The notes under the pieces: model-generated
Told to the model about the DNA's origin: nothing
The model's input: only the letters and a program-made list of their open reading frames with translations
Databases searched by the model: none
Made by a program: the position numbers and the translations under genes
Shown: positions 6,270-51,500 of the stretch, one piece after another
How positions within the stretch are numbered: position 1 is the first letter of the stretch
Layout of the letters: every line of letters starts with the position of its first letter
Assembly (NCBI GenBank): GCA_030390025.1
Contig: CM059431.1
Location: 122,948,001 to 123,012,000 of the forward strand
From: Squalus acanthias
Taxonomy: Eukaryota
DNA length: 64,000 nucleotides
Reading direction: 5' to 3'

Positions 6270-6599
6270 AAAGTGTTGGAAGGAAGTGAAGAATAAGCTT
6301 GACAAATGTCAATTCTGTCAGCACAATTTAAGCTGCAATTGCATTCACCAATTCAAGTTCTATAATAATGTCATTAAAAGATACCACAACTGTTATGCAT
6401 GGGTTGAAGGAACAGCATCCCTACGAGACTTAGAATGGCTTTTCCGTGACCCTGCATGTCACTGCGTACTTGCTATTATAACAATTAGTATGCATTAGAA
6501 TTAAAGTAGTTGCTCATTTTAAGAAAGGCATGGATGATTTCCGAATGATTCTAAGGACCTGAGAATGCTGCTTTAAATATGACATAGCTACAACATCAT

Positions 6600-6925
6600 T
6601 TTCTTTATTCCCTTCCAACTTTTCCACTTCTCACTTGCAGTTGAAGACTCATGCTGGGGTGTTTTTTTTTATCCATTCTTTGTACAGTGTTGTCAGGCTA
6701 TTCAACTGTGGGCCCATTATAGCTGAGCCCATCCTGTCCTTATTCAATTTTTACATGTCCAATTTTACAGTCAGAGTAACTGGATAGAGAGGAGGAATGC
6801 CAACTGGGTGATTGTCTGTCATCCTAGCCCAGGGATACTGTGATTAATTGAAGTGCTCCTACTGCTACTCTAGCTGAAGAAAAAGTAAACTTTAAGAATA
6901 GGATATAATTCCTGCCACCTATATG
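6600..6925 (-). mobile_element. Old SINE-like interspersed repeat (same family as 31490-31895)
   Basis: Patchy similarity to 31490-31830 (acagtg..aggctatt..gagYccaKYc..cctagYcYggg). Confidence 0.4.
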
Positions 6926-17972: not shown

Positions 17973-18258
17973 ACAGAATTGCCACACAATACAACAACAG
18001 CTTGCATTAATATAGTGCCCTTAATGCAGTAAAACGTCCCAAGGTGCTTCACAGGAGCATTATCAAACTAAATGTCAGCACCGAACCACATAAAGAGATA
18101 TTAAGACAGGTGACAAAAGCTTGGTCAAAGAGGTAGGTTTTACCACTTAAGGAGGAGCGATAGATGGACAGGTGGCAAGGTTTAGGGATGAACTTATAAA
18201 ACTTGGGTCCTAGGCAGCTGAAGGCATGGCCGCCAATGGTGTGGTGATGGAAACCAGG

Positions 18259-19889
18259 AGCCCAGGAGCCATCTTGTCTGTCTGTCCATCTTCAAGAAAG
18301 GTGACAAGTCTGATTGCGGTAATTACAGAGGAGCTTCCCTGCTGTCTGCCACAGGGAAAGTCATCGCAAGAATCCTCCTCAATCGCCTTCTCCCAGTGGC
18401 TGAAGAGCTCTTCCCAGAGTCGCAATGCGGATTCCGCCCACTAAGGGGCACAATGGACATGAACTTCACCGCGTGCCAATTACAAGAGAAATGCAGGAAA
18501 CAGTACCAACCGCTGTACATGGCCTTCTTTGACCTCACAAAGGCCTTCAACTCTGTCAACCGTGAGGGATTATGGAGTGTCCTCCTCAAATTCGGCTGAC
18601 CTCAAAAGTTTGTCACCATCCTTCGCTTGCTTCGTGACGACATGCAAGCCATGATCCTGACCAATGGTTCCACCACAGACCCAATTCATGTACGGACCAG
18701 GGTCAAGCAAGGCCGTGTCATCGCACCAACGCTCTTCTCAATCTGCCTTGCGGCAGTGCTCCATCTCACCTTCAGTAAGCTCCCCGCTGGAGTGGAGCTA
18801 ATTTATAGAACAAACAGGAAACTGTTCAAACTCCGTCGCCTCCAGTCCAGATCCAAGGTCGTCCCTTCCTCTGTCGTCGAATTACAGTATGCAGACGACG
18901 TTTGCGTCTGCGCATACTCGGAGGTCGAACACCAAACCATCGTTAAAACCTTCACCGAAGCGTACGAGAGCATGGGCCTTACACTAAACATCCGTAAGAC
19001 AAAAGTCTTCTACCAACCTGCCCCCGCCACACAGTACTGCTCCCCGATTATCAAAATCCATGACAAGGCCTTGGACAATGTGGACCACTTTCCATACCTC
19101 AGGAGCCTACTGTCAACAAGGGCAGAAGTCGATGACGAAGTCCAACACCGCCTTCAGTATGCCAGTGCAGCCTTCGGTCGCCTGAGGAAGAGAGTGTTTG
19201 AAGACCAGGACCTCAAACCCGGCACCAAGCTCATGGTCTACAGAGCAGTAGTGATACCCACCCTCCTGTATGCCTGAGAGACATGGACCATGTACAGCAG
19301 GCAGCTCAAAGCACTGGAGACGTACCATCAATGCTGCCTCCGTAAGATCCTGCAAATCTATTGGCAGGATAGACGCACCAACGTCAGTGTTCTCACTCAG
19401 GCCAACATCCCCAGCATCAAAGCTTTGACCACACTCGATCAGCTCCGATGGATGGGTCACATCGTCCGCATGCCCGATACGAGACTCCCAAAACAAGCGT
19501 TCTACTTGGAACTCCGAAATGGCAAGAGAGCCCCAGGTGGGCAGAGGAAATGCTTCAAGGACACCCTCAAAGCCTCCTTGAAAAAGTGCAACATCCCCAC
19601 TGACACCTGGGAATCCCTGGCCCAAGACCGTACAAAGTGGAGGAGAAGCATCCGGGAAGGCGCCGAACACCTCGAGTCTCTTCGCCGGGAGCAAGCGGAA
19701 GCCAAGCGCAAACAGCGGAAGGAGCGCACGTCAACCCAAGCACCCCACCCACCCCCCCCTTCAACCAACGTCTGCCCCACCTGTGACAGAGACTGTAGGT
19801 CCCGCATTGGACTCAGCAGTCACCTGAGAACTAATTTTTTATGTGGAAGCAAGTCATCTTCGGTTCCGAGGGACTGCCTAAGAAGAGAA
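18259..19889 (+). mobile_element. RTE-clade LINE, 5'-truncated
   Basis: ESQCGFRP, AFFDLTKAF, VKQG..IAPTLF, LQYADD, C-terminal CPTC...SH zinc knuckle, (AAG)n tail. 13-bp TSD GATGGAAAYCAGG at 18246-18258 and 19890-19902. Confidence 0.95.
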
Positions 19890-20096
19890 GATGGAAATCA
19901 GGGATGGGCAAGAGGCTAGAATTGGAGGACCGCAGAGATCTCGGTGGGTTGTAGGGCTGGAGAAAGGTACAGAGATAGGGAAGGGCAAGGCCATAGAGGG
20001 ATTTGAACATAAGGATGAGAAAATTAAATTTGGGGCATTGCTGGACCGGGAGCCAAAGTAGGTCACAAGCACAGAAGTGATAGGTGAACGGGACTT

Positions 20097-31985: not shown

Positions 31986-34550
31986 CAGAAGGTTGTGGGT
32001 TCAAGTCCCACTCCAGAGACTTGAGCACAAAAATCTAGCCTGACACTCCAGTGCAGTACTGAGGCAGAGGTGCCGTCTTTCAGATGAGACATTAAACCAA
32101 GGCCCCGTCTGCTCTCTCAGCTGGAAGTAAAAGATCCCATGGCACTATTTCGAAGAAGAGCCAGGGAGTTATCCCTGGTGTCCAGGCCAATATTTAACCC
32201 TCAATCAACATCACTAAAACAGATTATCTGGTCATTATCATATTGCTGTTTAATGGGAGTTTGCTGTGTGCAAATTGGCTGCCATGTTTCCTACTTCTTC
32301 TTCTTCTTCTTCTTAGGCAGTCCCTCAGAACCGAGGATAACTTGCTTCCACATTAAAAATGAGTTTTCAGGTGACTGATGAGTCCAATGCGGGAACTACA
32401 GTCTCTGTCACAGGTGGGGCAGACGGTGGTTGAAGGGGCAGGTGGGTGGGGTGCTTGGGTTGACGTGCGCTCCTTGCGTTGCTTGCGCGTGGCTTCCGCT
32501 TGCTCCCGGCGAAGAGACTCGAGGTGTTCGGCGCCTTCCCGTATGCTTCTCCTCCACTTTGTGCGGTCTTGGGCCAGGGATTCCCAAGTGTCAGTGGGGA
32601 TGTTGCACTTTTTCAAGGAGGCTTTGAGGGTGTCCTTGAAGCGTTTCCTCTGCCCACCTGAGGCTCTCTTGCCGTGTCGGAGCTCCGAATAGAGCGCATG
32701 TTTTGGGAGTCTCGTATCGGGCATGCGGACGATGTGACCCGTCCATCGGAGCTGATCGAGCGTGGTCAAAGCTTCGATGCTGGGGATGTTGGCCTGAGTG
32801 AGAACACTGACGTTGGTGCCAATGGATTTGCAGGATCTTCCAGAGGCAGCATTGGTGGTACCTCTCCAGTGCATTGAGGTACCTGCTGTACATGATCCAT
32901 GTCTCTGAGGCATACAGCAGGGCGGGTATCACTGCTGCTCTGTAGACCATGAGCTTAGTGCCGGGTTTGAGGTCCTGGTCTTCAAACACTCTCTTCCTCA
33001 AGCGACTGAAGGCTGCACTGGCACACTGAAGGTGGTGTTGGACTTCGTCATCGACGTCTGCCCTTGTTGACAGTAGGCTCCCGAGGTATGGAAGGTGGTC
33101 CACGTTGTGCAAGGCCTTGTTGTGGATTTTGATAATCAGGGGGCGATACTGTGTGGCGGGGGCAGGTTGGTAGAGGACCTTTGTCTTACGGATGTTTAGT
33201 GTAAGGCCCATGCTCTCGTACGCTTCGGTGAAGGTATTGACAATGGTTTGGAGTTCGACCTCCGCGTGAGCGCAGACGCAAGCGTCGTCTGCATACTGTA
33301 ATTTGATGACAGAGGATGGGACGACCTTGGATCTGGGCTGGAGGTGACGGAGGTTGAACAGCTTTCCCGTTTGTTCTGTAAATTAGCTCCACTCCAGCGG
33401 GGAGCTTATTGAGGGTGAGATGGGGCATTGCAGCAAAGAAGATCGAGAAGAGCGTTGGTGCAATGACACAGCCTTGCTTGACCCTGGTCCATACGTGAAT
33501 TGGGTCTGTGGTGGAACCGTTGGTCAGGGTCACGGCTTGCATGTCATCACGAAGCAGGCAGAGGATGGTGACAAACTTTTGAGGGCAGCCGAATTTGAGG
33601 AGAACACTCCATAATCCCTCACGGTTGACAGTGTCGGAGGCCTTTGTGAGATCAAAGAAGGCCATGTACAGTGGTTGGTGCTGTTCCTGCGTTTCTTTTC
33701 TAATTGATGCGTGGTGAAGATCATGTCCATTGTGCACCTTAGTGGGCGGAATCCGCATTGCAACTCTGGGAGGAGCTCTTCGGCCACTGGGAGAAGGCGA
33801 TTGAGGAGGATTCTTGCGATGACTTTCCCTGTGGCAGACAGCAGGGAAACTCTTCTGTAATTATCGCAATCGGACTTGTCACCTTTCTTGAAGATGTTCA
33901 CAATTACGGCATCTCTGAGATCCCCTGGCATGCTCGCCTCCTTCCAGATAAGAGAAATGAGTTCATGAATTCGCGCCAGTAGTGCTTCTCCGCCATGCTT
34001 TACTGCCTCAGCAGGGATTCCATCTGCTCCTGAGGCCTTGTTGTTCTTCAGTTGTTGGATGGCCTTTTCAACCTCATGCCGGGCTGGGGTTGTGCTGAGA
34101 TGGTGGCGGGTAGCATGCTGCGGGATGGAGTTGAGGACACTCGCATAGAAAACAGAGTCTCGGTTAAGGAGATCTTCGAAGTGCTCCTTCCAGCGGGCAC
34201 TGACTGCCTCTCTGTCCTTGATGAGTACCTCTCCGTTTTTGGCCCGCAGTGGGGTAGGACCTTCGGTGCTTGGGCCGCAGATGGTCTTGACTGCGCTAAA
34301 GAATCCACGCACATCGTGGTTATCAGCAAGCTGCTGGATCTCCTGCGCTTTCTCCACCCACCATCTGTTCATTAGGTCATTATCTGGTCATTATCATATT
34401 GTTGTTTAGTGGGAGCTTGCTGTGTGCAAATTGGCTGCCGCGTTTCCTACATTACAACAGTGACTACACTTCAAAAGTACTTCATTGCTGTAAAGTGCTT
34501 TCGGACCTTCTGAGGTCATGAAAGGCACTTTATTAATGCAAGTCTTTCTT
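31986..34550 (+). mobile_element. Deu-domain tRNA SINE (SacSINE1-like) with L2-type tail, split by an RTE insertion
   Basis: GGTTCAAGTCCC B-box, central GTAAAAGATCCCATGGCACTATTTCGAAGAAGAG. 5' part 31986-32294, 3' part 34379-34550. Confidence 0.75.
32295..34378 (-). mobile_element. RTE-clade LINE, 5'-truncated, 72-bp TSD
   Basis: ORFs 33530-34372, 33186-33758, 32591-33211, 32353-32913 encode RT and zinc knuckle. (AAG)n tail at 32295-32313. Flanking direct repeat 32223-32294 / 34379-34450. Confidence 0.95.
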
Positions 34551-34928: not shown

Positions 34929-35902
34929 AATAACACTGTATTCCTGTGCTCTGCAATGCGCAGTGAAGTGCAATCTCATTAGGCAGTAGTCAGTTACCAA
35001 AGCCTGCAGTTACACCTGGCAGACAGCTGCGGGCTCTGATAAGAATCAAATGGAACATGTTGGCCGTAGGACTGAAATGTGCTGGTTATCAAGAGAACTA
35101 ACTGCAGCATATAAAGTAGAGCCGCAGCACAGCTTTCCCCAACCCTCCAGAGGAGCACAAGTCAAAACCATACATTCAGGAATACTCTGAATGGGCATTT
35201 TTAAATCTGAACAATTCCATAAAAGCTATGCTTGATGCCAATACTTGCTTCTAATTTACAGCTCCATCATATAAATGCTTTCATCCCTGACTATGTAATC
35301 AATCAATAATGACAGTTTGTTTGAAGATGAATTTTACATGTGATATCCACAAAGTGACATGACGGAGCCTCAAATGAGCGTCCTGCAAATGCAAAATCTT
35401 TGACAGAAATATCTTTCAAATTGATGTGCTTTTTTCTGCTGACCTACTGTATATGTAGGAAGCCATTACAAAATACAGCATACAAGGAACCATTGTCCGA
35501 ACAAATTTACCTGCATTCAATTTTCCAAATAGAATTTTGTCATTCCATAGGCTTCTGATGGCAGCAGCAATGCTAACACAAGGCTGTCAGTTTTCTCCAG
35601 GGACCATGAATAAAATGCATTATTTTTAGCCATACTCTTGCCATGGATGCTCATTAATAATCATCACAAGTGTGTTTGTATGCACAAATTTTATGTAAAA
35701 CAGTTCTTATTACCCGAATAGCAATTAAACAAATGGCAAAAATAACTCCATATTTTGTATAGAAGTCAGCATTAATGCTAAGGGCTGAATAAACTTTGTG
35801 GAATTTGCATTTTATTTATTTCAGGACTTTTCATATATGATTACCTATATTTTAGTGTATGCAAATTCCTTGTAGTGTTCATAAATTAGAAAGCAATCTA
35901 CC

Positions 35903-36396
35903 TGTTGTGGGATTTCTCTCTGCCCGAAAGCAGACGGAGACGAGCGTGTACTGGTTCCAAGTGATCTTTATTCAAGCACGTGCAGGGAGAGGCCTTCTCA
36001 GTCTGAGCTGAGACGGGAGTCTAATTTTTACATTCGAGCAGTTGGCTTATGTACAATCTTACATCTTGTTTCCTTCACATCTTTGGGACTTGGCCAATTA
36101 ATTGTCCAAGTCACGTACACTTAATCACATCTCCACAAAACACATCTTGTTTATCTCATTTGCCCTGTTTCCACATCTGCCATTGTTCTACTCTTTAGCT
36201 CTTATCCAATTTTGTACACTTAACCACATCTTCGCAAATCACATTGGCGGCCCATTGTTCAATGTATGGCCTTCTTTCACTCCCCCAATCATCGTGTAAT
36301 ATGCTTTTTCCAACCGACTTTGGTCTGCCAGACTTCTCCTTTATTACATCAGCTAGCTAATCAGTTAAGCCACTAATCTAACTTTTAACCCCTTCA
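35903..36396 (-). repeat. ERV 3' LTR (494 bp)
   Basis: Direct repeat of 41270-41771 with about 15 substitutions and one 8-bp indel by eye. Minus-strand AATAAA at 35967-35972. Confidence 0.95.
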
Positions 36397-36408
36397 GTCC
36401 CCCCTTTT
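36397..36408 (-). promoter_or_regulatory. Polypurine tract
   Basis: AAAAGGGGGGAC immediately before TGAAGGGG, the start of the 3' LTR on the minus strand. Confidence 0.9.
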
Positions 36409-36525: not shown

Positions 36526-38644
36526 CTAACATTCCCTGCTTCTCTCCCAATCTATACTGTGTTTTAACAACGGTTTTAGCAATGGTCGGTTACGGCGTCG
36601 TTTACATCGAGTACAATACTCAAACATAAGTATGATGACAATTAGCAACTGCACCACCACCAATACATGAGATGCAATTCTAAGCCAGTGGTGTATGTCC
36701 ACCCTAATACCGCAGTCCCAAAGTGTCTGCCACCATGAGGCATCTTTCAGCTTGGCCTCCACATCCTTCTCCAGTTGTTTGACCTCCTGGTCAATTCGGT
36801 GATACTGCTTCATTATCGCCCCGGCCTCTTTCCTCGGTTCCAGTAGGTGTTCTGGTAGTTTTGGGATGTCCTTCCGGTCCTCAGTTGGACTCACCCGTTC
36901 CTTGCGGGGCGACCGTAGGTAGGTTATGGTTGCATGTCCAATCATTGTTGGGGCCCGGGGGCGGAAGCAGAAACTTGAGCTGGTCACTGGGCACTGGATG
37001 TTACCATACTGGTATTGAGATTCACTGGTGGTCACACAGTATTCTCCTTTTCCCCGGTGTGCTGCTCGCGTTGGCTCATGGCGGGCGCTGGGAATTTCAA
37101 GGGTACAGTTTCGGGTGGTGTTGAAGCCGTACATGGCTCCTGGCCCTGTCCCCACTGGATGTGGGCAGACTACGTTACTCCCCCTTTCTCTGCATCCCTC
37201 TAGTGAGATCCCCATCAAGAAGGAACCTTTCTGGGTTGCATAACTGGGTGTGTGGTGGTATCTGAGCCAATTGCCATCTCTTATGATCCCGACCTTCTCT
37301 ACCTCGTAGAGGGGCTTGGATTCCCATTCCTGCAGACTGGGTACAGCTAATACCATTCCTATCAGCTTCAGGTGAGTGATAACACAATGTTTAGTTGTCG
37401 GGTAGACCCTTATAAGTCCTCGTAGGGTGCACGAAGAGCAATTGCCGCTCTCTGGCGCCCAGTCTTGCAGTGCACTATCCGTAATTCAATCTGGTACATC
37501 TCCATTGTGGAGCTGTACTAGATTATATCGCAACTCCCCCACTAGCCATGCACCATAGGCCACGCACATTTGCTCCCTAGGGGCGTGATTGGTTACGTTA
37601 TGCAGGGTGGCGGTGACATGGTTAACTGTATGGGCATGGTTTTCCAAAACTTGCACAGACTCTAATAGGGTTTTAGTCAAGTCTTCTCCGGTCTGTCCCT
37701 GTTGTCCCTCCAACTTATTTGCCTTTAACATGAGGTCCCTTAGTTTGGATGTTAGATGATTCACCTTGCTATCGATTTCCGTTATATCCAGGGAATTAAC
37801 TGTGGATGTCCCTGCCCTGTAAGCAGTGGCTATGTCATTTACCAGGTTCCTCTGGCAGCGAGATAGGCTCGACCGCACGCTTCCCTCAGAGGTCCTGAGG
37901 GCATCAGTAACTGCTGTGTCGAGGAGCCGATGGTAAAACGACCTTGTACGCTACTCGCACCATTTGGGTAACCCCATCTGGCTAATATTGAGCACAACTG
38001 AAACTATCTCATGGTGTACATTCTCAAAAAAGCGCCGATCAGAATCCTGGATCACGAGCCCTCCTTTGGGACCTGAGCTAGGCTGCGGACACCTCAAGGG
38101 TTCCTCCATAGTCAAGGTGGTGGGCTTCGGGGCTCCTGTTCCTGGAGTGGTCGGTGTGGTTGTGGTGGTGGGAGTATCCCGGGGGTTCAGCTTCCAACAT
38201 CAATCATCAGAGTTGGTGCACTTGGAGGTTGGGCATAGTTCCCACCCTCCTTCTTCCTGCTGGGGTACCCCGGACATCTGAGTGAAATCCCTCCCACATC
38301 TTATTTGCATAGTTCCTCCCTTTACACATGTTAATGTATCATCACTCTTCTTCCCGAAGCATACCGTGCTCATGCTTGTCCATTTAACAGCCACCCCTGT
38401 GTTACCCCTATCCCCTGTATCGCCTGGCTTGTTGTCAAATATGCTTACGCCCGTTAACCCGGAGCTACAATTTAAATACACTGTTTAATCAACCGTGACA
38501 GTTAACGCCCCACGTTCCCGATCGCAGCTGACGTCGCTCGAGTTCTTGTAATACAGGCCTCGTTGCTCCCTTCGGTCGATTGATGTGGCTCCTTTTGTGG
38601 TCGCCGTGGCCAGGCATATCAGTAAGGTCATCCGTATCTGAGTC
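36526..38644 (-). pseudogene. env: ERV envelope glycoprotein pseudogene (~706 codons in one frame, four internal stops)
   Basis: ORFs 38200-38481, 37486-37878 and 36526-37356 share one frame. Signal-like MTLLICLATA, Thr/Pro stretch, RCQR cleavage-like site, heptad region, Cys-rich region, anchor IASHVLVVVQLLIVIILMF and basic tail. Confidence 0.88.
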
Positions 38645-40216
38645 CTGTAGAGGGAGATAAACAGTGGACGCCTTATTATTTACTGTGCTTTCAAATTTCT
38701 TAAGTTGCGTCCAGTGTTTCCACCGACCTTTTCCTTTCATATTTATGCATGCGCAAGTGTCGCTAGTCATTAGGACCTCGTAGGGTCCCTGCCAGCGAGG
38801 TGCCCATCCTGGTCTGGCGGGTAAGACTCTTTCCATCACCCTGTCCCCTACTACTGGTAAATTTTGTTCTTCCTCCATTTTCTCCAATTCCATATCCCTG
38901 ACTATTTGTTGGTCCCTGACTTCCTGTCTCAGATCATGCAGTTGTTTGCATAGTTCCTTAATAAACAACCTAATCCTGTCCTGGGCTGGTCCCACGTCTT
39001 CACTACCCGTGATCGTGCCCTCGGGCAGTCTCATGTCCCGCCCAGTCATTAGTTCAAATGGGGTTAGTCTGGCTGTGCAATTGGGCGTAGCCCTCAACCT
39101 CATTAGGATGCTCGGTAGTAGGTCCGCCCATCCCCTGCCGGTCTCGGCAATGGCCTTTGTGAGTGACGCCTTTAAGATTCTATTCATTCTCTCTACCATT
39201 CCCGAGCTCTGTGGGTGGTATGGTATGTGAAACCTCTGTTTTACTCCTAATAGGGCGCATGTCTGCTCGATGACTTTGCCAGTGAAGTGTGTTCCCTGAT
39301 CTGAGTCTATTTGCAGTAGCACCCCCCATCGGGGTACTATTTCCTCAGTGAAAATCTTTGTGACGGTGGCAGCAGAGCAATCCCTTGTGGCGAATGCTTC
39401 TACCCATCGTGTGAACTGGTCTATCACCATTAGGCAATACGTTTTACCTCAGCTAGGGGGCAGTGGTCTGGTGAAGTCTATCTGGACCTGCTCCCAAGGC
39501 CCCTTAGGCCGAGGCTGGTGGAACAATCTGATCTTTACGGCCTTGCCGGTATTGTACTGGGCACAGGTAATACATCTGTGGCAATATTTTGCTACGACCC
39601 TGCCCATCCCTGGCCACCACCAGCACTGTTCTATACTCCAGTGCATAGCATTTCTTCCGGAGTGTTGATTCCCAGGATAGATTTTGAGCAGGTTTTGCCG
39701 TATGCATTCAGGGGCTACTACTCGTCCCTCCTTTTTCCAAATCCCATGCTCATCCTTGTCTGCCCCTTTCCTTTTCCACCCTTCCTTCTCTGTTTCAGTC
39801 GTTTCCTCTTGTAATTTTTGCACATTTACTTCCTCTGGAACGATGGCACAAGCTGCCACCGGCTCCAGGGTCTCAATCTCCACAGCCCCCTTTGCTGCCT
39901 CGTCTGCCCACGATTTGCCCTTTGGATATCATCCTGGACTTTCTGGTGTGCCTTGACCTTTATTACTGATGCCTGTCTGGGCAGCTTTGCCACCTCGACC
40001 AATTCCCTTACTGTCTCCTCGTGTTCTCTATGTCCCCCACCAGAGGTTATATATCCCCGTCTGCTCCAGCTGATCATGTAATCATGGACCACCCCAAAAG
40101 CGCATCTGCTATCTGTATAGATGTTCGTGGTCTGACCTTTAGCTAATTTCAGGGCTTCAGTGAATGCCGTCAATTCGACGACCTGTGCGGAAAGTCCCCC
40201 GAGGAGCCTCCCCTTA
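38489..40216 (-). pseudogene. pol: ERV pol 3' part: RNase H C-terminal half + integrase
   Basis: SAQVVELTA, NIYTDSRCAFGVVH, IKVKAH, WWWPGM..CHRCITC, QIDFT, IDSDQGTHFTG, YHPQSSGMVERMN, PRWQGPY. One frameshift and one stop. Confidence 0.93.
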
Positions 40217-40997
40217 CCAATCGCTTAAAACGGTTGTATCTTCCTAGCTGATTCAATCCCCGTGCATCCTTCCAATTTCCACTTAGGATTAAGTTGGGCA
40301 TCTCTAGCCAGGTTTGCCGGGGTACATTGGACTTTACGAGGACGTGTATATCTTCCGGGTGAAGTGAGTGTACATCTGTCATCTCCTCTAACTTATTCCA
40401 AAAGTTAGTGTTTGCATGGTTTGTTTTAGGGGTCGGGAGGTCCCTCGTCATCATCTGCTTCTCAGCTGGGGTGAACGGGACATATCGTACTGTAGTCTGA
40501 GCCTGCCCATTTCCCAGTTGTTTAATCTCCATCGTAATAGGGGCCATGGCCATTACGCCCTTCGTCCCTGGTTTCTGGCAGTGGCGGGGCCGATGGTCCC
40601 TCTGCGTCATATTTAGGTGGGGGCTCCCAACCCCCGTCATCGTCCTGTCTGTCGTAATCTGCGGCTTCTTTCTCTAATTCTCCCCAGTCAACGTCGTCAT
40701 TATCGTCTGTCGCTCTAAACCTTGGTCCCGGTGCCCGCACCGCACTGACCTTAACCTTTTCCTTTCCTATATAACTTTGTACATGTCCACTGAGTCCTAA
40801 GTAGCTACTAATAATGATAAGAATTCCCTTCTCTTCCTTACCCTTACACTGGGAGTCCCACAATTTCCTTTGCCTGTCCGGACTGTCGTTCGGACTCCAG
40901 CCTTTCTTTTTCATTTTCTCGATTAGTTTCTTATTTTTTTCTGCTATAAATTTGGTTATGGACCCTTCCAGTCCCCAATCTTCCCTCCTGTGGCCAT
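40217..40997 (-). pseudogene. gag: ERV gag N-terminal portion, frameshifted and truncated
   Basis: Position between PBS and pol. ATG at 40997, basic MA-like part, PPPKY/PSAPP late-domain-like motifs, capsid-like YVPFTPAE...FWNKLEEMTDVHSLHPED. Confidence 0.75.
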
Positions 40998-41248: not shown

Positions 41249-41266
41249 ATCCTGCCGACTACGTCA
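41249..41266 (-). promoter_or_regulatory. Primer-binding site, tRNA-Ser
   Basis: TGACGTAGTCGGCAGGAT, 3 nt after the 5' LTR. One mismatch to TGGCGTAGTCGGCAGGAT, the complement of a vertebrate tRNA-Ser 3' end. Confidence 0.85.
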
Positions 41267-41269
41267 ACT

Positions 41270-41771
41270 TGTTGTGGGTTTTCTCTCTGCCCGAAAGCAG
41301 ATGGAGACGAGCGTGTACTGGTTCCAAGTGATCTTTATTTAAGCACGTGCAGGGAGAGGCCTTCTCAGTCTGAGCTAAGACGGGAGTCTAATTTTTACAT
41401 TCGAGCAGTTGGCTTATATACAATCTTACATCTTGTTTCCTTCATATCTTCGGGACTTGGCCAATGAATTGTCCAAGTCACGTACACTTAATCACATCTC
41501 CACAAAACACATCTTGTTTATCTCATTTGCCCTGTTTCCACATCTGCCATTGTTCTACTCTTTAGCTCTTATCCAATTTTGTACACTTAACCACATCTTC
41601 GCAAATCACATTGGCAGCCCATTGTTCAATGTATGGCCTCCTTGCCTTCTTTCACTCCCCCAATTATCGTGTAATATGCTTTTTCCAACTGTCTTTGTTC
41701 TGTCAGACTTCTCCTTTATTACATCAGCTAGCTAATCAGTTAAGCCGCTAATCTAACTTTTAACCCCTTCA
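41270..41771 (-). repeat. ERV 5' LTR (502 bp)
   Basis: Matches 35903-36396. Minus-strand TATA-like TATATAAG near 41413-41420. Confidence 0.95.
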
Positions 41772-41934
41772 CCACCCAATCAAAATTCCTCAGTGATGGG
41801 TTCAGTGGGGAAGAATTTATCTGTCCTCCATCTGTACCAAAATCATAACTATGATTATACATTAACAATTTTGCCACAAATGATGAACAGAGGAAATTTT
41901 CTTCTGGGTTTGTAAGGTTGCTTAAGAGCACAAT

Positions 41935-42321: not shown

Positions 42322-45300
42322 GGGCCCTGATATTAACTTGGAGATGCGTTGGGAGAGATGGGGGTTCGATATCACTTGTGAAACCAGGAAGTAAGTACAG
42401 CGCGTCTATCTGTGGCTTTTTAATGTAGCCAGCTCATTATCATTTTACTTCCAGGTTTGACATCGATTGCGCTGTAGTGGGTACGATGTCATCTTGACTT
42501 CAGCAGCGAGTGAAATATGATCGTCTTCAGAATGATAAGTTGCAACATTCTTATCTTGCCAGTACTAATTCATATCTTTTATCTCTTCCCGGTTCTACAC
42601 GCATGCAGCAGCAGCCAATGGATGCCGCGGATGCTGATTCCTCAGAGGAGCTGATTCGTTTTGAGGGTGCACTGTCATAGGACTCATGCATACCAAGCAA
42701 CAGCTCAGATACTCGCACTTCCGTGGGACCAGTAAGACAGATAGTTGGGTTTTCATCTGGGGACTCACACATCACAAGTGTGCAAGGACAGATGTGTTGG
42801 CCAATCTTCCCTGTAATTTATTTTGTGCCGTGCAACCCCTTAACGAGCTGCATGATGGTATCGCAGGGCATTGTGGAACATCAAATGCGTCAATCCAATG
42901 ATTTCATGCAATCCTTGAACACAGCCATGCAGACTCTGGATGCCAACATGTCTGCCGCCTTAAACAGGATGACAGATACTTGGCCTTACAGCAACCCACT
43001 GATCTGCACCAAAGTGCTCTCCAGCAGAGTGGGCCATGAGAGGTGAAAGGGGACATGGAATTGGGTACTCCACTCAAAGCGCTTCCACTTCTCACCCGTT
43101 GCACCCCCTGCCACCCCAGTCAGTATCCGACATTCTGCCTCGTGTCCTGATGGCCGAGTCTGCCCTGCAGAGGTACGGGTGGAGCAGTCTTTGGCGGGGC
43201 CCTCACGGGCTCCAAAACCCAGAGGATGTCGGCCAAGAGCATCTCCGCAGTCAGAGCAAGGATCTGAGCAGCCTGCCTCTACTTCTGCTGAAGCCACAGG
43301 GGGTTGCACCACGTAGAAGCGGTAGGAAATGGAAGAGGAAAGCTTTGCATTTGCACAAGGTTATGCACATAGGTGAGAAAATGTTATACTGTGAAGTTTC
43401 TATTCTTTAGTTCAATCACATAAATTTTGTTCTTTTGCAACAGTTTCCCACCTTGCCCATTCTTGATTGCTGGGTGGCAAGTCGCCTTTTAAGTTGCTTG
43501 ATAATGAGTGAGAAGACATGAATAGATGGGGACCAATTGGGGGATGTGCAAATGGTGGTTGTTTGTTTACAGGATTGCTTTGTGTCAGTGGCATGGGGAG
43601 GGGTAAGGGTGGGGGTGGGAAGTGTGGCCATTGCATGTGCTTCTGACACCGATCCACTGCTGCAACCTAAGTGAACCTTGCATTAATAAGGGCATCCCTG
43701 GCAGCAATGTGAGCAGCTGGTGCTGCATTGCCCTCGTCATCTTCCACCTTTGTGTAGCTCCTCTGAATTGTCCGAAGAGGATCTGCGCTCTGCGCCTTGT
43801 TTCTCCTGCAGGTCCAAACTTCGCTGTTGCATCATGTTGTGCAGAGCGTAGCATACAGTGACCATTCTGTACATGTGGTGCTTACAGAAGGGCACCTCCG
43901 GATCTGTCTAGGCACCTGAAGCGCATCTTCAGCTTGCTGATGGCTTGTTCGATTACACATCTGGTGGTCATATAGCATTCATTGTAGCGCTGTTGGGCTT
44001 CAGTTGTCGGGTTTCTGACAGATTTCATCAGCCAAGTTTTAAGTGGGTATCCCTTGTCTCCTAGCAGCCACCCCTTAAATGTGCTTCCAGATGCAAAGAT
44101 CTCAGGGAGCTTGAAAGGCTGTAGGACAAAAGTATCATGGCAGCTCCACAGGAATCCTACACACATCTGCAAAAATATCTTTTTGTGGTTGCACACCAGC
44201 TGCACATTGATGGTGTGGAACACCTTGTGGTTCATGAATACTCCTGGTTGATCTGCGGGTGCCCGGATTGCCACATGTGTGCAGTCGATGGCGTTCTCCA
44301 CCTGTGGGAAGCCATTCAGAGACGCAAACCCGAGCACCCGCTCATTCTAACTGGTGTCATCACAAACGAAGTTGACATATTTGCCGGCCCTGGCAAACAG
44401 TCACCTGTCTTATGCATTTGTGTGCCACCAGACTGGGAGATCCTGGATATGTCTCTGATAGAGCCCTGGAAAGATCCAGAGGCAAAAAAGTTGAGGGTGA
44501 TGGTGCCTTTAACAACCACTAGTAACACGTGGCCACCAGGCCCACCAGGCAGCAGGTCGCAGTAGTAGGTTGCAGATGTCTGCCACCACCTGATATGACA
44601 ACCTGAGCCTCCGGAAGTACTGCTGTTCGGACATGTCAATGATTCTCAGCCTCTGCCTGTGCACCCTGTGTTGCGGGTAGTGCCTCCTGCGAGCTCCACC
44701 CTTCTGCTGCTCCCCTTTTTGCTGTCCAACTGTAGGTCTCTGAAGAGCAGGTGCTGCTGATTTTGGTCCCCTCTCTGATGCCTCTCAATAGCAGGCTGAT
44801 GCTGGTGCTGGTAATATTGCTCCTCGTCTGAGGTCCAATCAAAGGCAACCAAAGCGCTAACCATCCAGATGTGATTCAGAAAACCTCTAAAGTGTAGAAA
44901 GTAAACTCTCAGCAAAAGTACTGTGAACAAACCCTTTACCACTAGTAGGTAAGAAAGCAGCTGTGTGTACTGAGCACTTATTGCAGTATTTCCATGAGTT
45001 TGAATTAGCCCCTTCAATTGACGATGTGTTCTCGCCTTGCTTTCACTTGTGAGTTTCAGGAAGCTTGGGAAACCCGTGGATAAGCCATTAAATTTGATAG
45101 CCAGTTGAAATATCACTCCAATTGAGCGTTAAGCATATGTTAATAGGCAACCCGCCTCTCCTGAGGGTGTTGCGCGCGAGCAGCCTAACGCTCTCTAGTT
45201 AAACGTAGAAGTCGGCGGGTTGGACACGCTTGTATTTTTCCTGGTTTTCACCCCCATCTGCACCCAAACCCACGCGCTCCTTGAGGTTAAAATTCCCCCC
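42322..45300. mobile_element. Degenerate PIF/Harbinger transposon (partner remnant +, transposase -)
   Basis: [45 protein letters not shown] in ORF 43882-44337. Partner C-terminus LAGPSRAPKPRG...VAPRRSGRK at 43190-43345. Weak TIRs. Confidence 0.85.
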
Positions 45301-46655
45301 TAACTTGCTGTGACTGGGACTGGGACAGATATAAAGAACAGCAAAGAAAGACAAAAAGAAAGTAAGAGCGGCAAAAGGGAATACGAAAAGAAACTTGCGA
45401 GGGATATCAAGATAAATACCAAAAGTTTTTACAATTATATTAGAAGAAAAAGGGTAGTCAAGGGTTATGTGGGCCCTTAAAAACAGATGGGTTTAATATT
45501 GCAAATGAAAATAAGGAAATGGCAGACCTGTTGAATGGTTATTTTGTGTCAGTCTTCACAGTAGAGGAACTGGATGCTGTAACTGACATTCCAAGGAAAT
45601 TAATAATGAATCAAGGACTGGAACTCACTAAAGCTAACATAAGAAAGAAAACAGTATTAGACAATATGGTGGCACTAAAGACTGACAAATCCCCAGGATC
45701 TAATGGTTTCTACCCCAGGGTTTTAAAGGAAGTAGGTGAGGAAATTGCATATGCTTTAGTCGTAATCTTCCAAAGCTCTCTCGATTCAGGAATTGTCCCT
45801 TTAGATTGGATGATTGCAAATATAACTCCATTATTTAAGAAAGGTGAGAGAGAGAAACCAGGAAATTATAGACCTGCTAGCCGAACATCTGTTATAGAGA
45901 AGTTATTGGAATTTATAATTAAGGACAAAGTGACTGAGCGCTGAGAGAAATTTGAGCTGATTAGAGAGAGCCAACATGGATTTGTAAAGGGTAGGTCATG
46001 TCCAATGAACCTAATTGAATTTTTTGAGGAAGTAACTAGAGTAATAGACAGGGGAGTGTCTATGGATGAAGTTTATATGGACTTCCAGAAGACATTCAAT
46101 AAGCTTCCACATAAGAGACTGTTAGCGAAAATTAAAACTCATGGGGGTAAAAATTCAGTTGGTTGCGCCTCCCGTTAGCGCCTTAAATGGGCGCTAATGG
46201 GGCGTTAAGGCGCTAACGCCCGGGCGCAGCGATGTTTGCGCCGCTCGAGAACTTAACTTGAGATTGTGCGGCAGCGCTAAAACTTACCGCTGCGACCACC
46301 TGCGCGCGCAGATTGTGACGTCAGTCCGTGGTGCAACGCCCTTGGGGCGCCCCGGAGCGGAAATTGAGTGGCGCCCCCTGCCTTACCGCCTGGCGCTTCC
46401 AACGACCGGAAGACTGGAACGTTATCAATCGGTCTGGGGCTGGGGGGGGCGCTATTTAAAGGGGGCCTCTTCCTGTCTTTTTCTGTGGTCGACATTTATG
46501 CACCACTCGTTCTGAGAGAGAGAGAGAGATTCGGAGAGAGAGAGAGAGAGACTTCTACATTGACTCAACGCTTTGTGAGGTAGTTTTGCCTAGTTCATCC
46601 TAACTTTGCTGCTACTTTCGTTGCTGTACCTCATTACTTTTCTGGCAAAGAGAAG

Positions 46656-47816
46656 ATGGGGGCTGCAATGATTGGGGGCGTCGTCCTGCTCCAGCTCAAT
46701 CGGAGCAGAGTGAGACGCAGACAGAGAGTGGCAATGATGGCCAGACAGAGGAGGCCCATCAGGCGCATGTACAGGAGAGCTTACCCTCCCAGGGTATATC
46801 GTGAACAGCTCTCCTACATCCACATGTCCGAGGAGCTGTGTTTGCGAAGGCTGCGATTCAGCAAGGAGGTGGTCACTGAGCTCTGCCACCTGCTGCAGCC
46901 AGATCTGCAGCCTCAGCTGAGGTCCAGGACGTCTCTGTCGGTGGCAGTGAAGGTCACAGTGGCCTTGAACTTCTACGCCACTGGCTCATTCCAAGCTGCT
47001 GTTGGGGACCTCGCCAATATCTCCCAGTTTGCGGTGCATCGCTGCATCCGGCAGGTCACCAATGCCCTCTTCACAAGGAGACGAGACTTCATCTCCTTCC
47101 CTATGACCCCAGACAAGCAGCATGACCGTGCTATGGGCTTTGCGAGGGTAGCGGGCTTCCCCATGGTGCAGGGCGCCATTGACTGCACGCATGTGGCTTT
47201 GCGTGCTCCGCGAGAGAATGCAGAGGAGTTCCGGAACAGAAAGGGGTTCCATTCCTTGAATGTGCAGTTGGTCTGTGACCACAGACAGGTGATTCTCGCT
47301 GTCAATGCCCACTATCCGGGCAGCTGCCACGATGCTTTCATCCTGCGCCAGAGTACTGTGGCAGAAATTTTCGAGGCACCGCATCAGCCAGTCGGTTGGC
47401 TTCTGGGGGACAAGGGGTACGCATTGAGCACCTGGCTGATGACACCGCTCCGTGCGCCAAACACCCCTGCTGAGCTGCGGTACCAGGAAAGCCAACAAGC
47501 AACGAGGAACATTATTGAGCGCACAATCGGCGTGCTCAAACAACGATTCCGCTGTCTGGACCATTCCGGAGGAGCCCTGCAGTACTCGCCTGAGCAAGTT
47601 TCCAAATTCGTAGTGGTGTGCTGCATGTTGCACAACATGGCAATCCTCAGGACGCAGCCAATGCCACCAGGCCTTGCAGCACCACAAGAGGAGGAGGAGG
47701 AAGAGGAGGAACAGGCCGAGGACGATGATCAGCAGCAGCACCAAGGCAGGAGGGCGGCCCACAATGGTCAAACTGCAAGGGCCGTCCGTCAACGACTAAT
47801 AGCAAGCCGCTTCTAG
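46656..47816 (+). CDS. Harbinger (HARBI1-like) DDE transposase, uninterrupted, 386 aa
   Basis: ATG-to-TAG ORF with HTH region VKVTVALNFYATGSFQ and catalytic GAIDCTH, YPGSCHD, LLGDKGY, IERTIGVLKQRFRCL. Acidic C-terminal tract. Confidence 0.95.
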   Translation: MGAAMIGGVVLLQLNRSRVRRRQRVAMMARQRRPIRRMYRRAYPPRVYREQLSYIHMSEELCLRRLRFSKEVVTELCHLLQPDLQPQLRSRTSLSVAVKVTVALNFYATGSFQAAVGDLANISQFAVHRCIRQVTNALFTRRRDFISFPMTPDKQHDRAMGFARVAGFPMVQGAIDCTHVALRAPRENAEEFRNRKGFHSLNVQLVCDHRQVILAVNAHYPGSCHDAFILRQSTVAEIFEAPHQPVGWLLGDKGYALSTWLMTPLRAPNTPAELRYQESQQATRNIIERTIGVLKQRFRCLDHSGGALQYSPEQVSKFVVVCCMLHNMAILRTQPMPPGLAAPQEEEEEEEEQAEDDDQQQHQGRRAAHNGQTARAVRQRLIASRF

Positions 47817-48110: not shown

Positions 48111-50013
48111 CTACTTTTTGCCCTTCGAGGGTGATCTCCTTCCCTTGCGCACTTCCCCCCTTCTCACCCTACTGCTCCTCCGTAATGGGACCTCAGTGGC
48201 TGCAGCAAGGCTGGTGGAAGGCTGCTGCTTGTCAGACCCTGACACTGCAGATGCCCCTGAAGGCCGGCCTCGACCACTTCTGGGCCTGGAGGGCCCGGCT
48301 GCAGACTGCACCAACTCTGCATGGGCGGCAGCAGTCTGTCCGACAGGCGGTGGCAAGTGCAGTGGAGAAGTGACAGTGTTGGCAGCAGGAATGCTGTCAT
48401 CGTGAGAGAGGACAGCAACTCCCTGCTCGCCCGACACACTGGCACTCCCACGGGGCAGCACTTCAGCATCCGGAGCAATTTGCCTGAGAACAGATTGCTG
48501 GCCTGCTGCGGCGCGGTGACAGCCCCGGGGACATGTGCACGAACCATCGAGGATGGCAGCAGTCAGTGCTCGCGTGGCCTCAATCTGAGTCTGCATGAGA
48601 GCAGGCTCAGATGGGTTCCTGGCAGCCAGTGACTGAATTGCAGCAGTAAGCTTTAGTGTGGCATCCGCCTGTGCTACAGCGAAGTGCTCCACACTCCTTG
48701 CCAGTGCCTCAATGCATTCGGGCACCCTTCCCACTGCACCCATGAGCTCAGTGTGCATGACCACCGCCTGGCTGTTCATTTCTGCAATCATCCGCTCCTC
48801 CTCTGCGTCCATTGCATTAGGAGTGTCTGGCATACTCTCCCTCTGGGGAGAAGGCTCCCGTTCTTCCCTCCCCCCCCCATGGCGTTGCTGCAGCCCGCTG
48901 GGTCCTGGAACTTCACCATCATCAGCCCCTTCCCCCCTGCTCCCCCGTTCTTCCCTCCCCCCCCATGGCGTTGCTGCAGCCCGCTGGGTCCTGGAACTTC
49001 ACCATCATCAGCCCCTTCCCCCCTGCTCCCCTCCGGGGAAGGCGTGTTCCCAGTGTGGCCATGGGCTTCCTCGGGAGAGGGTGGCACTGATGCTCCGGCT
49101 TCCTCCTCAGCTGCAGCATCACTCCCAGTGGCAGCTTCAGGGACCATCTCCTCAGCTGGTGAATCACCATCTGAAAGCAGGGAGGTACAAGAGTGGCTTT
49201 AGCGTGAGGACAGGGTGGCAGTAAGGGAGGAATAAGTGCAGCGAGTTAGCAAGTTGGATTGAAAGTGTCAAAGGCTGGTATTGTGAGGGACAAGTGGAAG
49301 GACAGAGGACAAAAAGGTGATGACCTTACCATTGCTGTCCACAACGGGGTCGGCGTCTCCAGTGGCGACGGGACCGATCACCCGGCTTGCCACAATCCTG
49401 TGGACGCGCTCCTCCAGATCGCTGAGGGGTTGCAGCTGAAGCCGCCCTCCACCCGTCCGTTGCTGCTGTGTCCGATTATGAGCCAGCTTAGCCTGCAAGA
49501 AAAAGGACAGCATCTGAGTCAATATACAGCCATGGTCTTGCCTGATGTGCCTCCCATAGGTGAATAGCCCTTACAATATGCAGCCATGGTCTTGCCTGAT
49601 GTGCCTCCCATAGGTGAATAGCCCTTACTGTATGCAAAGTGTGGAATGTGTGTGTGTGTTTGATGAAAGGGCCATAGGTGTTGGATGAGTGTTGTGCATT
49701 GGGGTTTTAAGACCCTCTGGCCATAGAGTGAGGTTGAGATGGAGGGATGGAGAGGTATTGAGAAAAAGCCACTCACCCTGACGACCCGAGTGAGGTCGTT
49801 GAACTTTTTGCGGCACTGGACATGGGTCCTGGGCACCATGCTCCTGGAGGAGACGCTCTGAGCCACCTCCCTCCACACTCTTCTGAACTCGCGTGGCAAA
49901 GGCCTCCTGCCACTCTCTGGGAACAGCATGCATCGTCTGCGCTCCACTGCGTCAACCAGAGCATCCAAGGCCCGCTCGGTGAAGCGATGAGCGCGTTCTC
50001 TCACCCTCTCCAT
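48111..50013 (-). CDS. Myb/SANT-like (trihelix) DNA-binding partner protein, three exons (50013-49777, 49492-49330, 49170-48111), one 1-bp frameshift in a G run
   Basis: Exon 1 RAHRFTERALDALVDAV...WREVAQSV...RTHVQCRKKFNDL ends at GTGAGT (phase 0). Exon 2 TTGCAG|AKLAHNR..RTGGG ends at GTAAG (phase 1). Exon 3 TTTCAG| joins in frame. ~486 aa if the C run at 48957-48964 is 9 rather than 8. Confidence 0.85.
48858..49030. repeat. 86/87-bp tandem duplication in Myb-partner exon 3
   Basis: Two copies of CCCGTTCTTCCCT(C)nATGGCG...CCCCCCTGCTCCC that differ in C-run length (9 vs 8). Confidence 0.92.
49520..49628. repeat. 54-bp tandem duplication in Myb-partner intron 1
   Basis: CAATATRCAGCCATGGTCTTGCCTGATGTGCCTCCCATAGGTGAATAGCCCTTA twice, one mismatch. 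Confidence 0.92.
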
Positions 50014-50804
50014 TCTTGGCAGCAAAATGGATTACAGGTCTCTCCAGGCTGAGATTCAAGGCTGCAATGAGCAGGGTGTGGCTGGGGAGCAAGTGGCCCC
50101 CCCCGCTTTAAGAAGTGTCCGGCGCCAGTGTGTCTGTGTTACCGCGCTAACTGGCAGCAGCTGCGCTGCGCTCGTGCGCTGAGTTAGCGCCTCACTCCTA
50201 GGCCTTTGCGCCTTAAGAGAGGTGTGCAGCGCCTAATTTAGCGCTCCACTCACCTCCCGGGGCGGTAAAAGTGAAGTTTCCTGTCAGTGCCGATAATTAG
50301 CGCCAGGCGCTAATATTTGCGCGCGGACGATATTTGCGCCCCAAATGGGGCGCGACCTAATTTCTACCCCATGGAATTGAAGGCAAACTATTGACCTGGT
50401 TAGGAGTTTGGCCAGGCGATAGAAGACAGAGTGTAGGGATAATGGGTATGTACTTGAATTGGAAGGAAGTGACCAATGGTGTCCCACAAGAATCTGTGCT
50501 AGGGCCTCAACTATTCACTATGGGGGCGAAATTCAGTTGCTTTGTGCCTCCCGTCATCGCTGTGCCCCGGCTGCAAACTTGGGTTGCGCCCCCTGACCTA
50601 TCGCTGGACGATATGTCCGACTGGGTCAGGGTGGCATTTTTGCAGCCGCCGCGGCACAAGTTAAAGGGCAGGTGTCGGGCGGACTTTTTTTGGCCGATTA
50701 CCAACACCTGCCCCCTTCCCCTTTTTATTTGGGGTGCCGGCTGCGATCGCTCAGCCCGGAACTCATCTACCTCTAACAGATTTATCAAATACGATTTTCC
50801 TTGA

Positions 50805-51500
50805 CACCGCGGGACACACTCACTAGAAGGAGATGCACTACAGGACACACTCACTAGAAAGAGACGCACCGCGAGGACACACTCGCTAGAAGGAGACGCA
50901 ACGCGAGGACACACTCGCTAGAAGGAGACACTGCGAGGACGGTGCCCAGGAGCGAGGTTGAGGCCCAGGCGCGAGGTCGGGTCCCAGGAGTGAGGTCGAG
51001 GCATAGGAGCGAGGTCGGGACCCAGGAGCGAGGTCAGGAGCGAGGTCGAGGCCCAGGAGCGAGGACGAGGCCCAGGAGCGAGGTCGGGACCCAGGAGCGA
51101 GGTCAGGAGCGAGGTCGAGGTCCAGCAGCGAGGTCGAGGCCCAGGAGCGCAGTCGAGGCCCAGGAGCGTGGTCGAGGCCCAGGAGCGAGGACAAGGCCCA
51201 GGAGCGAGGTCGGGACCCAGGAGCGAGGTCGAGGCCCAGGAGTGAGGACGAGGCCCAGGAGTGAGGTCGGGACCCAGGAGCGAGGTCAGGAGCGAGGTCG
51301 AGGCCCAGGAGTGAGGACGAGGCACAGGAGTGAGGTCGGGACCCAGGAGCGAGGACGGGGCCCAGGGACAAGGACGGGGCCTGGGGCCCAGGACGGGGCC
51401 CGGGGCGGGGGCGAGGACGGGGCCCAGGGGCGGGGGCGAGGCAAGCAGCAAGGTCGAGGTGCAGGAGTGGCGCAGCGTGGACCAGCAGCGAGGTCGGGAG
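50805..51500. repeat. Compound GC-rich minisatellite
   Basis: Four ~31-32-bp units (GGACACACTCRCTAGAAGGAGA) followed by 19-bp and 12-bp AGGAGCGAGGTC(GAGGCCC/GGGACCC) units. Confidence 0.93.

Follow-up and report, generated by a model that had tools for sequence, protein, structure and literature searches.

A retroviral envelope gene (env) on the minus strand of a 64,000-nucleotide (nt) stretch of the Squalus acanthias genome (contig CM059431.1; hereafter, the window) raises the question of which type of membrane fusogen it encoded and how that type came to be carried by its retroviral lineage. In a sequence-only reading, the interval 36526..38644 had been assigned to an endogenous retrovirus (ERV) whose envelope protein (Env) resembled foamy-virus Env and the paramyxovirus fusion protein (F) rather than the gamma type. 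By combining structure prediction, profile comparisons, and a genome-wide comparison of copies, we find it very probable that the locus is a dead shark ERV, adjacent in its polymerase (Pol) to snakehead retrovirus (SnRV), with a class Ib Env homologous to those of SnRV and walleye dermal sarcoma virus (WDSV). The window locus is a decayed marker of its family, and its interest lies in linking the envelopes of SnRV, WDSV, foamy viruses, and probably lokiretroviruses.

The env frame extends from an ATG at 38631 to a stop ending at 36526 (36526..38631, minus strand), that is, 701 codons in the second frame of the interval. It is interrupted by four premature stops, at codons 49, 144, 227, and 382 (38487-38485, 38202-38200, 37953-37951, and 37488-37486, minus strand), and by no frameshift. 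Each of the remaining five frames contains 16-49 stops, and 2000 shufflings of the same stretch gave a mean of 34 stops and a minimum of 18. The claim of a single env frame with four stops and no frameshift was thus upheld, with a length of 701 codons, and every motif quoted for it was found in the order given. A pyrimidine tract followed by AG at 38644..38660 (minus strand) is a possible env splice acceptor, judged from sequence only.

On the minus strand, the frame could be divided into successive parts. Codons 1-180 (38092..38631) hold a signal peptide, a variable Cys-containing N-terminal module, and a Thr/Pro linker, and lie outside the region aligned to F. They are followed by an F2-like part of the core that comprises a helix and two strands and reaches to the cleavage position (codons 181-261, 37849..38091), and by a fusion-peptide-like segment (codons 262-281, 37789..37848), which is aligned to the Gly/Ala-rich segment following the cleavage motif in homologues. 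Heptad A, helices, and the Cys-rich beta domains of the F-like core (codons 282-575, 36907..37788) were placed by the model and conserved Cys residues, and heptad B (codons 594-629, 36745..36852) forms a helix in the predicted model. A transmembrane anchor at about codons 652-670 (36622..36678; hydropathy peak of 2.8) precedes a basic tail of 30 residues. The post-cleavage subunit measured 440 residues (codons 262-701 after the aligned cleavage position), as had been estimated. No polybasic furin-type motif was found in the window env copy, and R-x-K/R-R stands immediately upstream of the aligned fusion-peptide segment in 17 of the 23 homologues covering the site. Cys 480, 489, 532, 547, and 555 are kept in 84-97% of homologues covering those positions. 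Neither a CX6CC nor an immunosuppressive motif occurs in the window copy, in agreement with the sequence-only reading, and CX6CC was absent from all 43 aligned homologues.

These homologues were obtained by a HMMER search of representatives, which returned 45 env homologues; word-based searches with the env query and with the env-alignment query returned nothing. The alignment used here (A2) leaves out P0175, a Thr-rich bacterial protein rejected as a spurious env homologue, the host-gene fusions P0165, P0170, and P0178, and the short matches P0180 and P0186, and adds four members of one cyprinid cluster, giving 43 homologues and 44 rows from sharks, skate, frog, and cyprinids with Env identities of 19-40%. 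In P0165, P0170, and P0178, env fragments are fused with gene models of Niban-like, F-box, and cadherin type, which may be annotation artefacts or exonised ERV pieces. Among ten Env relatives that were looked up, six came from cartilaginous fish (Mustelus, Heterodontus, Chiloscyllium, two Pristiophorus, and Rhinoraja), one from the frog Pelodytes, and one was a cyprinid cluster. The number of residues before the core varied from 22 to 229 among six homologues with a recognisable start motif, which fits a swappable receptor-binding module. Separately, an Ig-like domain was apparent before the F core in P0167, P0152, P0153, and P0158 (V-set E 0.045 in P0167; UniRef names P0152 Ig-like), and the N-terminal module of the window copy has no Ig-like look. 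Two homologues searched by sequence against the PDB had no match, and the Ig-like look of their N-termini is therefore unconfirmed.

An AlphaFold model built from the 44-row alignment reached a mean predicted local distance difference test score (pLDDT) of 62.6 and a predicted template modelling score (pTM) of 0.44, with residues 181-240 and 351-570 mostly at 70-96, heptad A at 50-65, and residues 1-170 below 50. A single-sequence model (pLDDT 35) was unusable and was discarded. When the alignment-based model was compared with the PDB by Foldseek, all 42 rows among the matches listed were paramyxovirus or pneumovirus F proteins, with a best E of 1.5e-10. An alignment independent of Foldseek, run against 48,161 chains, placed F proteins in the top nine positions (Z 9.0-10.5 over 266-308 residues, covering model residues 186/188-575), and foamy-virus Env followed with Z 8.0 over 267 residues and a root-mean-square deviation (rmsd) of 5.3. 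In a second look, the best structure was post-fusion Nipah F, with Z 11.6 and an rmsd of 5.0 over 289 residues. Model residues 186-188 align to the first residues and strand of mature F, and the match runs to the start of heptad B. The N- and C-subunits would thus both contribute to the F-like core, as the aligned region spans the cleavage position, and the strands upstream of that site, from residue 188, are a part of the core that the sequence-only reading had lacked. No gamma-type transmembrane structure appeared among the structural matches listed, an absence that does not amount to exclusion.

Sequence-level searches pointed in the same direction with low scores. The F family PF00523 matched the window env at E 0.018, below its cut-off; the six best-ranked of ten chains in a PDB sequence search were paramyxovirus F0 (E 0.3-0.5), and the family profile had foamy Env as its top PDB match (E 0.022). 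By contrast, the gamma-type family PF00429 (TLV_coat) matched none of the 45 homologues. The foamy Env family PF03408 matched neither the window Env nor its homologues, and the window protein has one membrane anchor. An Env that is F-like and non-gamma, as first proposed, is therefore well supported by the model, both structure searches, and the lack of CX6CC and PF00429, and the best structural matches were F proteins instead of TLV_coat proteins. By the definition in PMC11468914, under which both subunits contribute to domains I-III of an F-like core, the window Env would on this model be a class Ib fusogen with an F-sized core plus an N-terminal module of about 180 residues, the latter being a candidate receptor-binding part. 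If it worked as F proteins do, furin cleavage would yield N- and C-subunits that are both retained in the scaffold, Env would form trimers, and the N-terminal module would bind the receptor; heptad A, triggered by the receptor, would then refold to project and insert the fusion peptide, and heptad B would zip back to bring about membrane fusion. The window copy itself yields no working Env and is inert, and the available text of PMC12193657 states that SnRV fails to spread when it has no working env.

To place this Env among retroviruses, the family profile was run against 59 open reading frames from 14 retroviral records, and all 12 domains scoring above 7 bits were Envs. SnRV Env scored 21.1 bits, WDSV Env 19.0 and 16.3, and nine of ten foamy Envs 7.2-17.5; as controls, 300 shuffles of SnRV Env reached at best 1.5 bits and the reversed sequence -1.3. 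Here, the 12,708-nt genome with the WDSV reverse transcriptase (RT) motif was taken to be WDSV, presumably correctly given its length, and the foamy references were ten foamy-type genomes from a motif scan, four of them confirmed by PF03408. The protein P0018, used as the SnRV reference, agrees with the row for SnRV in the PMC7947760 supplement, and the 10,688-nt record to which it maps has the published SnRV length. Profile-profile comparison by hhalign gave a probability of 96% for WDSV Env over 461 columns, from the start of the core to the transmembrane anchor, and of 94% for SnRV Env over 289 columns, a stretch that takes in the CP..GP.SG start as well as the cleavage site and Cys pattern. 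A local rerun gave 95.5% for WDSV, 92.1% for SnRV, and 3-59% for three foamy Envs, while 16 controls (Gag, Pol, two TLV_coat-bearing proteins, reversed, and shuffled sequences) did not exceed 0.6%, the TLV_coat-bearing proteins standing at 0.2-0.3%.

In the BFVD structure database, the Env of walleye epidermal hyperplasia virus 1 (WEHV1) took second place (E 5e-13), with WDSV Env at rank 27 and feline foamy Env at rank 38 amid many F-type glycoproteins, the first rank being held by an arthropod virus glycoprotein. Because the family profile aligns collinearly to both WDSV and SnRV Env, F-type Env occurs inside Orthoretrovirinae, contrary to published statements. The statement that the Env was not of epsilon type consequently proved wrong, as the best named sequence-level relative is the Env of an exogenous epsilonretrovirus, WDSV. 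The lokiretrovirus Env in the supplement of PMC7947760 displays the same series of core motifs in a by-eye comparison, which carries no score. As further observations, the WDSV Env (5962-9648) and SnRV Env (6131-9532) frames match no meaningful Pfam family yet match the F-like profile, with 400-500 residues preceding the core. A fish filovirus glycoprotein (Wenling thamnaconus septentrionalis filovirus) ranked fourth in BFVD, and abalone and ranid herpesvirus proteins also matched the F-like model.

Compared with known structures, the RT of a sister copy scored 237 bits with murine leukemia virus, 161 with foamy virus, 114 with Ty3, and 86 with human immunodeficiency virus; among viral records, SnRV was the best named virus with 252 bits, followed by WDSV with 207 and foamy viruses with 121-157. 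The nearest named Pol relatives were found in Mustelus (the cluster of P0002, 58%) and Heterodontus (56%), and then in cyprinids (44-47%). Together with the Env relatives from Mustelus, Heterodontus, Pristiophorus, and Chiloscyllium, they make a shark host probable, as first proposed. In RT trees of 33 and 34 rows, inferred under LG+G4 with no mixture model and with no lokiretrovirus, named ERV-L, or fish foamy-like ERV reference, the shark and cyprinid sequences formed a clade (support 97/96) outside class I (100/99) and foamy viruses (100/100), in a polytomy with SnRV. A clade with WDSV was rejected by the approximately unbiased (AU) test (p-AU 1.6e-5), and an assignment to Epsilonretrovirus by RT was discarded accordingly.

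By eye, the closest published Pols were the turtle Ch_my_ERV12, Ch_pi_ERV20, and Ma_te_ERV13 and the whale-shark Rh_ty_ERV4 in Xu et al., 2018, a hand count against Ch_my_ERV12 giving 118 identities in 163 residues. In the text of the S2 Fig of PMC6001957, where the topology is not visible, these ERVs follow SnRV at the end of the clade-Huo block. The lineage is thus probably already known from RT surveys (Xu et al., 2018), and would lie outside the gamma/epsilon, foamy, and lokiretroviral groups, probably adjacent to SnRV in clade Huo. The deep-branching, SnRV-like position proposed from the sequence alone therefore stood, while its ERV4-like and loki-like parts did not. ERV4 identity was rejected on the presence of two zinc knuckles and a GPY motif, both lacking from ERV4 as defined in the part of PMC4299795 available, and lokiretroviral identity on motifs and by-eye comparison, the RT motif being PQG-x-x-SP/YVDD in the family and PFG in the lokiretroviral rows compared.

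The env belongs to a provirus of 5.9 kb on the minus strand, from which about 3.5 kb is missing internally (the 3′ half of gag, protease, and RT), a deletion that had escaped the sequence-only reading. The 5′ long terminal repeat (LTR) of 502 bp begins with TG and ends with CA (41270..41771), and the 3′ LTR of 494 bp (35903..36396) differs from it by a Kimura two-parameter distance of 0.031. The element is flanked by 5-bp target-site copies at 41772..41776 and 35898..35902, of which four of five bases match. Contigs from other organisms end loosely at 41771, the edge of the 5′ LTR. Three nt past this LTR lies a primer-binding site for tRNA-Ser(AGA) (41249..41266), matching the intact site of sister copies at 17 of 18 nt, and the 15-mer complementary to it sits in a host gene that ARAGORN identified as tRNA-Ser(aga); within the window, no tRNA gene was found, and the Rfam scan gave chance matches alone.

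A frameshifted 5′ half of gag with an inferred start (40207..40997) is collinear with the gag of fuller sister copies and leads to the deletion junction (40207..40215), where about 3.5 kb has been lost, comprising the 3′ half of gag with two zinc knuckles, protease, RT, and tether. Four of 20 sister loci have an extra 3.5-3.9 kb at this site, and Pfam zf-CCHC, RVP, RVT_1, and RT_RNaseH were found in the fuller copies. Behind the junction lie an RNase H remnant (39826..40206; PF00075, E 1.4e-11) and a stop-interrupted integrase with its zinc domain, core, and C-terminal GPY motif (38489..39830; PF17921, E 1.8e-10; PF00665, E 5e-14; PF18697, E 0.024). A polypurine tract (36397..36408) separates env from the 3′ LTR. 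The locus is thus an inactive provirus with an internal deletion, one member of a multi-copy ERV family primed by tRNA-Ser, and the window copy was probably mobilised or broken after its protease and RT were lost.

Next, the family was surveyed in the 3.7-Gb genome. With the C-terminal env frame as query, 128 matches were found, including 84 further ones at 69-94% identity and 43 at 37-44%; 125 of 9,369 candidates were scored, and these match numbers do not represent copy numbers. The 43 matches at 37-44% to the window env point to a second ERV family, seemingly the more abundant one, in which long open frames are often found. When 25 loci were compared, 22 of them aligned over env, stops 1 to 4 of the window copy were common to 0, 2, 2, and 1 of the 22 copies, respectively, so that they are mostly private damage acquired after insertion. 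None of 13 near-full-length sister envs was free of both stops and frameshifts, and a 729-codon open frame in one sister locus was rejected as an intact env, as the codon comparison showed no undamaged near-full copy.

Distances between LTRs were 0.027-0.038 in five of six sister copies, pointing to a single wave of insertion, whose age would be about 7 million years at a mammalian rate or about 70 million years at the shark rate assumed in the portion of PMC4422223 available. The six sister copies with both LTRs all have the 3-nt spacer between LTR and primer site, and their target-site duplications are of 5 bp (three), 4 bp (two), or none (one), compared with the imperfect 5 bp in the window and the 5 bp that belong to the definition of ERV4 (PMC4299795). 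The copy with no duplication has twice the LTR distance and is perhaps recombinant. The 15-mer of the tRNA-Ser primer site has 581 exact matches in the genome; 75 of them have a tRNA context, a tandem array on contig C889 accounting for most of the 75, and several hundred Ser-primed elements likely exist. Four sequencing runs from four organisms contain the family, and two of the four show many differing flanks at each LTR end. No RNA run occurred among the listed runs holding the family, from which expression cannot be read because contigs cannot show it, and no IMG/VR record matched the family RT peptides. Taken together, the window locus is dead, and the family looks dead as well.

Several observations weigh against the combination of an F-type Env with an SnRV-adjacent Pol. 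The fold is predicted, with the modest mean pLDDT and pTM given above; Foldseek TM-scores were 0.2-0.3 with large rmsd; Z values of about 10 are moderate for a helix-rich chain, as unrelated helical chains reach 8.8, over fewer than 120 aligned residues; and PF00523 matched none of the 45 homologues at E 0.05 and never exceeded its cut-off. The Atlas gave F0 as its first match (0.92) but with low recognition, and assigned the bamboo-shark homologue to no family. The fusion-peptide-like segment of the window copy is weakly hydrophobic (mean hydropathy of 0.1, versus 0.13-0.84 in homologues), the N-terminal module has no usable model, so that a receptor role for it is an inference, and the RT position is a polytomy in which neither grouping with SnRV (AU p 0.43) nor grouping with foamy viruses (0.078) is rejected. 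The low pTM, the high rmsd, and the sub-threshold Pfam scores would also be produced if the resemblance to F arose spuriously from two heptads and a modest model, with a diverged gamma-type or unrelated Env beneath. Nevertheless, low TM-scores and large rmsd are expected for the monomer model of a protein with two conformations, which means that the match rests on coverage and consistency; the aligned region takes in beta domains and pre-cleavage strands beyond the helices, and several independent methods lead to F or foamy Env and away from TLV_coat, making an artefact very improbable.

An F-like Env would be explained at once if the element were a true lokiretrovirus or a fish foamy-like virus, of which such an Env is a hallmark, and both the AU value for the foamy clade and the motif series shared with lokiretroviral Env by eye are compatible with this. 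But the RT motif and the RT scores for SnRV and WDSV described above run against it, as do the two zinc knuckles in Gag of sister copies (found in none of ten foamy records), the lack of a PF03408 match, the single membrane anchor, and the finding of lokiretroviruses in none of three chondrichthyan genomes. This explanation is already largely refuted, and we consider it quite unlikely. It is still less credible, to the point of being barely so, that the window env was co-opted by the host for a useful truncated product. The absence of frameshifts over 701 codons and a median pairwise dN/dS of 0.67 to sister copies could speak for it, though the pairs are non-independent, an unrelated element occupies one integrase row, and a single element supplied two of the loci; on the other side, the first stop already falls at codon 49, the integrase ratio is similar (0.78), the pairs share the window branch, and CpG decay can raise dS.

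Given an F-type Env on an SnRV-adjacent Pol, two histories compete for its origin. In one, which we hold tentatively at nearly an even chance, class Ib F-type Env is ancestral and was kept in lokiretroviruses, foamy viruses, SnRV-like viruses, and walleye viruses, and class Ia Env (gamma- and beta-type) replaced it elsewhere. Such a history matches scenarios 1 and 3 as set out by Wang and Han and accords with the occurrence of the same core in four separate RT lineages, that of lokiretroviruses by eye from the text of PMC7947760; however, Env identities of 15-20% are near the limit, Env swaps are common in ERVs (XtERV-S, in the part of PMC8278194 available), and most fish epsilon-like ERVs carry a gamma-type Env, read as the ancestral epsilon state in the passages available of PMC9967133. 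In the other, which has a fair share of the probability while falling short of even, F-type Env was passed laterally between aquatic retroviruses, such as from a loki- or SnRV-like virus to WDSV/WEHV and to the shark family, or was captured repeatedly from negative-strand viruses. Here, Env similarity departs from RT, WDSV Env being the best named match while an RT clade with WDSV is rejected; an arthropod virus glycoprotein comes first in BFVD; and cross-class transmission has been reported for clade Huo. Against it, the span of sharks, skate, frog, and cyprinids at 19-40% identity implies old age. On present evidence, ancestry and lateral swap are about equally likely, and both can be partly true.

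A wider conjecture, possible although we doubt it, is that the lokiretroviral, foamy, SnRV-like, and walleye Envs are one F-derived family, that the last common ancestor of retroviruses used an F-type fusogen with N-terminally grafted receptor modules (Ig-like and others), and that the gamma, beta, and lentiviral Envs are later replacements, a link not yet in print. Finding F-type Env together with an SnRV-adjacent Pol, and homologues of this Env in two living orthoretroviruses, undercuts the split between class Ia and F-like Envs and reopens the origin of retroviral env. Tests of the link need not rely on the dead shark copies, since SnRV can be cultured and WDSV provides an intact, natural Env.

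Elsewhere in the window, a 410-codon open frame at 46584-47816 (minus strand) is presumably a Harbinger-type transposase-like frame, near which 49519-50031 (minus strand) may hold what we take to be its Myb/SANT-like partner; decayed relatives lie at 10528-11259 and 43882-44346. The decayed reverse-transcriptase frames of long interspersed nuclear elements (LINEs) at 1051-4186, 18222-19919, 32353-34387, and 45444-45944 are, we assume, CR1- or RTE-like, and decayed LINE frames of these kinds are typical of shark genomes. A GC-rich tandem array with a 19-nt unit occupies 50895-51454.

In the literature search, outside whose scope lay most subscription journals, including Calcraft et al., 2024 (Cell) and Wang et al., 2023 (J Virol), no description of an SnRV, WDSV/epsilon, or shark clade-Huo Env as F-like was found; of the combination seen here, a class Ib Env with an N-terminal module on a canonical SnRV-adjacent Pol, the Pol is probably a known lineage and the Env was not found described. 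Published work restricts F-like Env to foamy viruses and lokiretroviruses. In the portions available, section 10 of PMC11468914 treats orthoretroviral Env as class Ia, PMC9040795 prefers independent env gains as canonical and lokiretroviral Envs have no detectable similarity, PMC9967133 calls walleye Env 'distinct' from the gamma type and recent, PMC12583693 mentions that reverse-transcribing viruses have class I glycoproteins and anticipates further ones in Retroviridae, and PMC13524379 defers vertebrate ERVs to later work. Parts of PMC13709493, PMC11521997, and bioRxiv 10.1101/2024.07.05.601823 and 10.1101/2024.03.17.585361 were compared as well.

Among known systems, SnRV shares with the shark family a zinc-knuckle Gag and a homologous Env core, and related ERVs of the SnRV clade or clade Huo appear in the available parts of PMC6001957, PMC12193657, and PMC4422223 (CmiERV lineage I). 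It differs in having one zinc knuckle instead of two, about 500 residues before the Env core instead of 180, a long tail, and accessory frames. WDSV Env has about 400 residues before the core and about 340 after the matched region, on a class I RT. Foamy Env gp130 (PDB 8RM0, 8RM1, and 8OZH; described in the part of PMC11468914 available) likewise has a class Ib core, with the profile match in its Cys-rich domain, but its leader is anchored in the membrane and a large receptor-binding domain lies as an insertion between its subunits, whereas the shark core is F-sized and its module N-terminal. Lokiretroviruses, not reported from cartilaginous fish in the available text of PMC7947760 and PMC9040795, are likewise LTR elements with an F-like Env according to these sources, but the Envs compared begin at the core right after the signal peptide and the RT branches outside canonical retroviruses. 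Paramyxovirus and pneumovirus F0 (PF00523; PDB 1ZTM, 8DMJ, and 3RKI) match the whole core structurally at 7-15% identity, but these viruses use a separate attachment protein and their F has no N-terminal module. With its variable module at the N-terminus, as in the coronavirus spike, the shark Env family adds a retroviral case of the spike-type layout.

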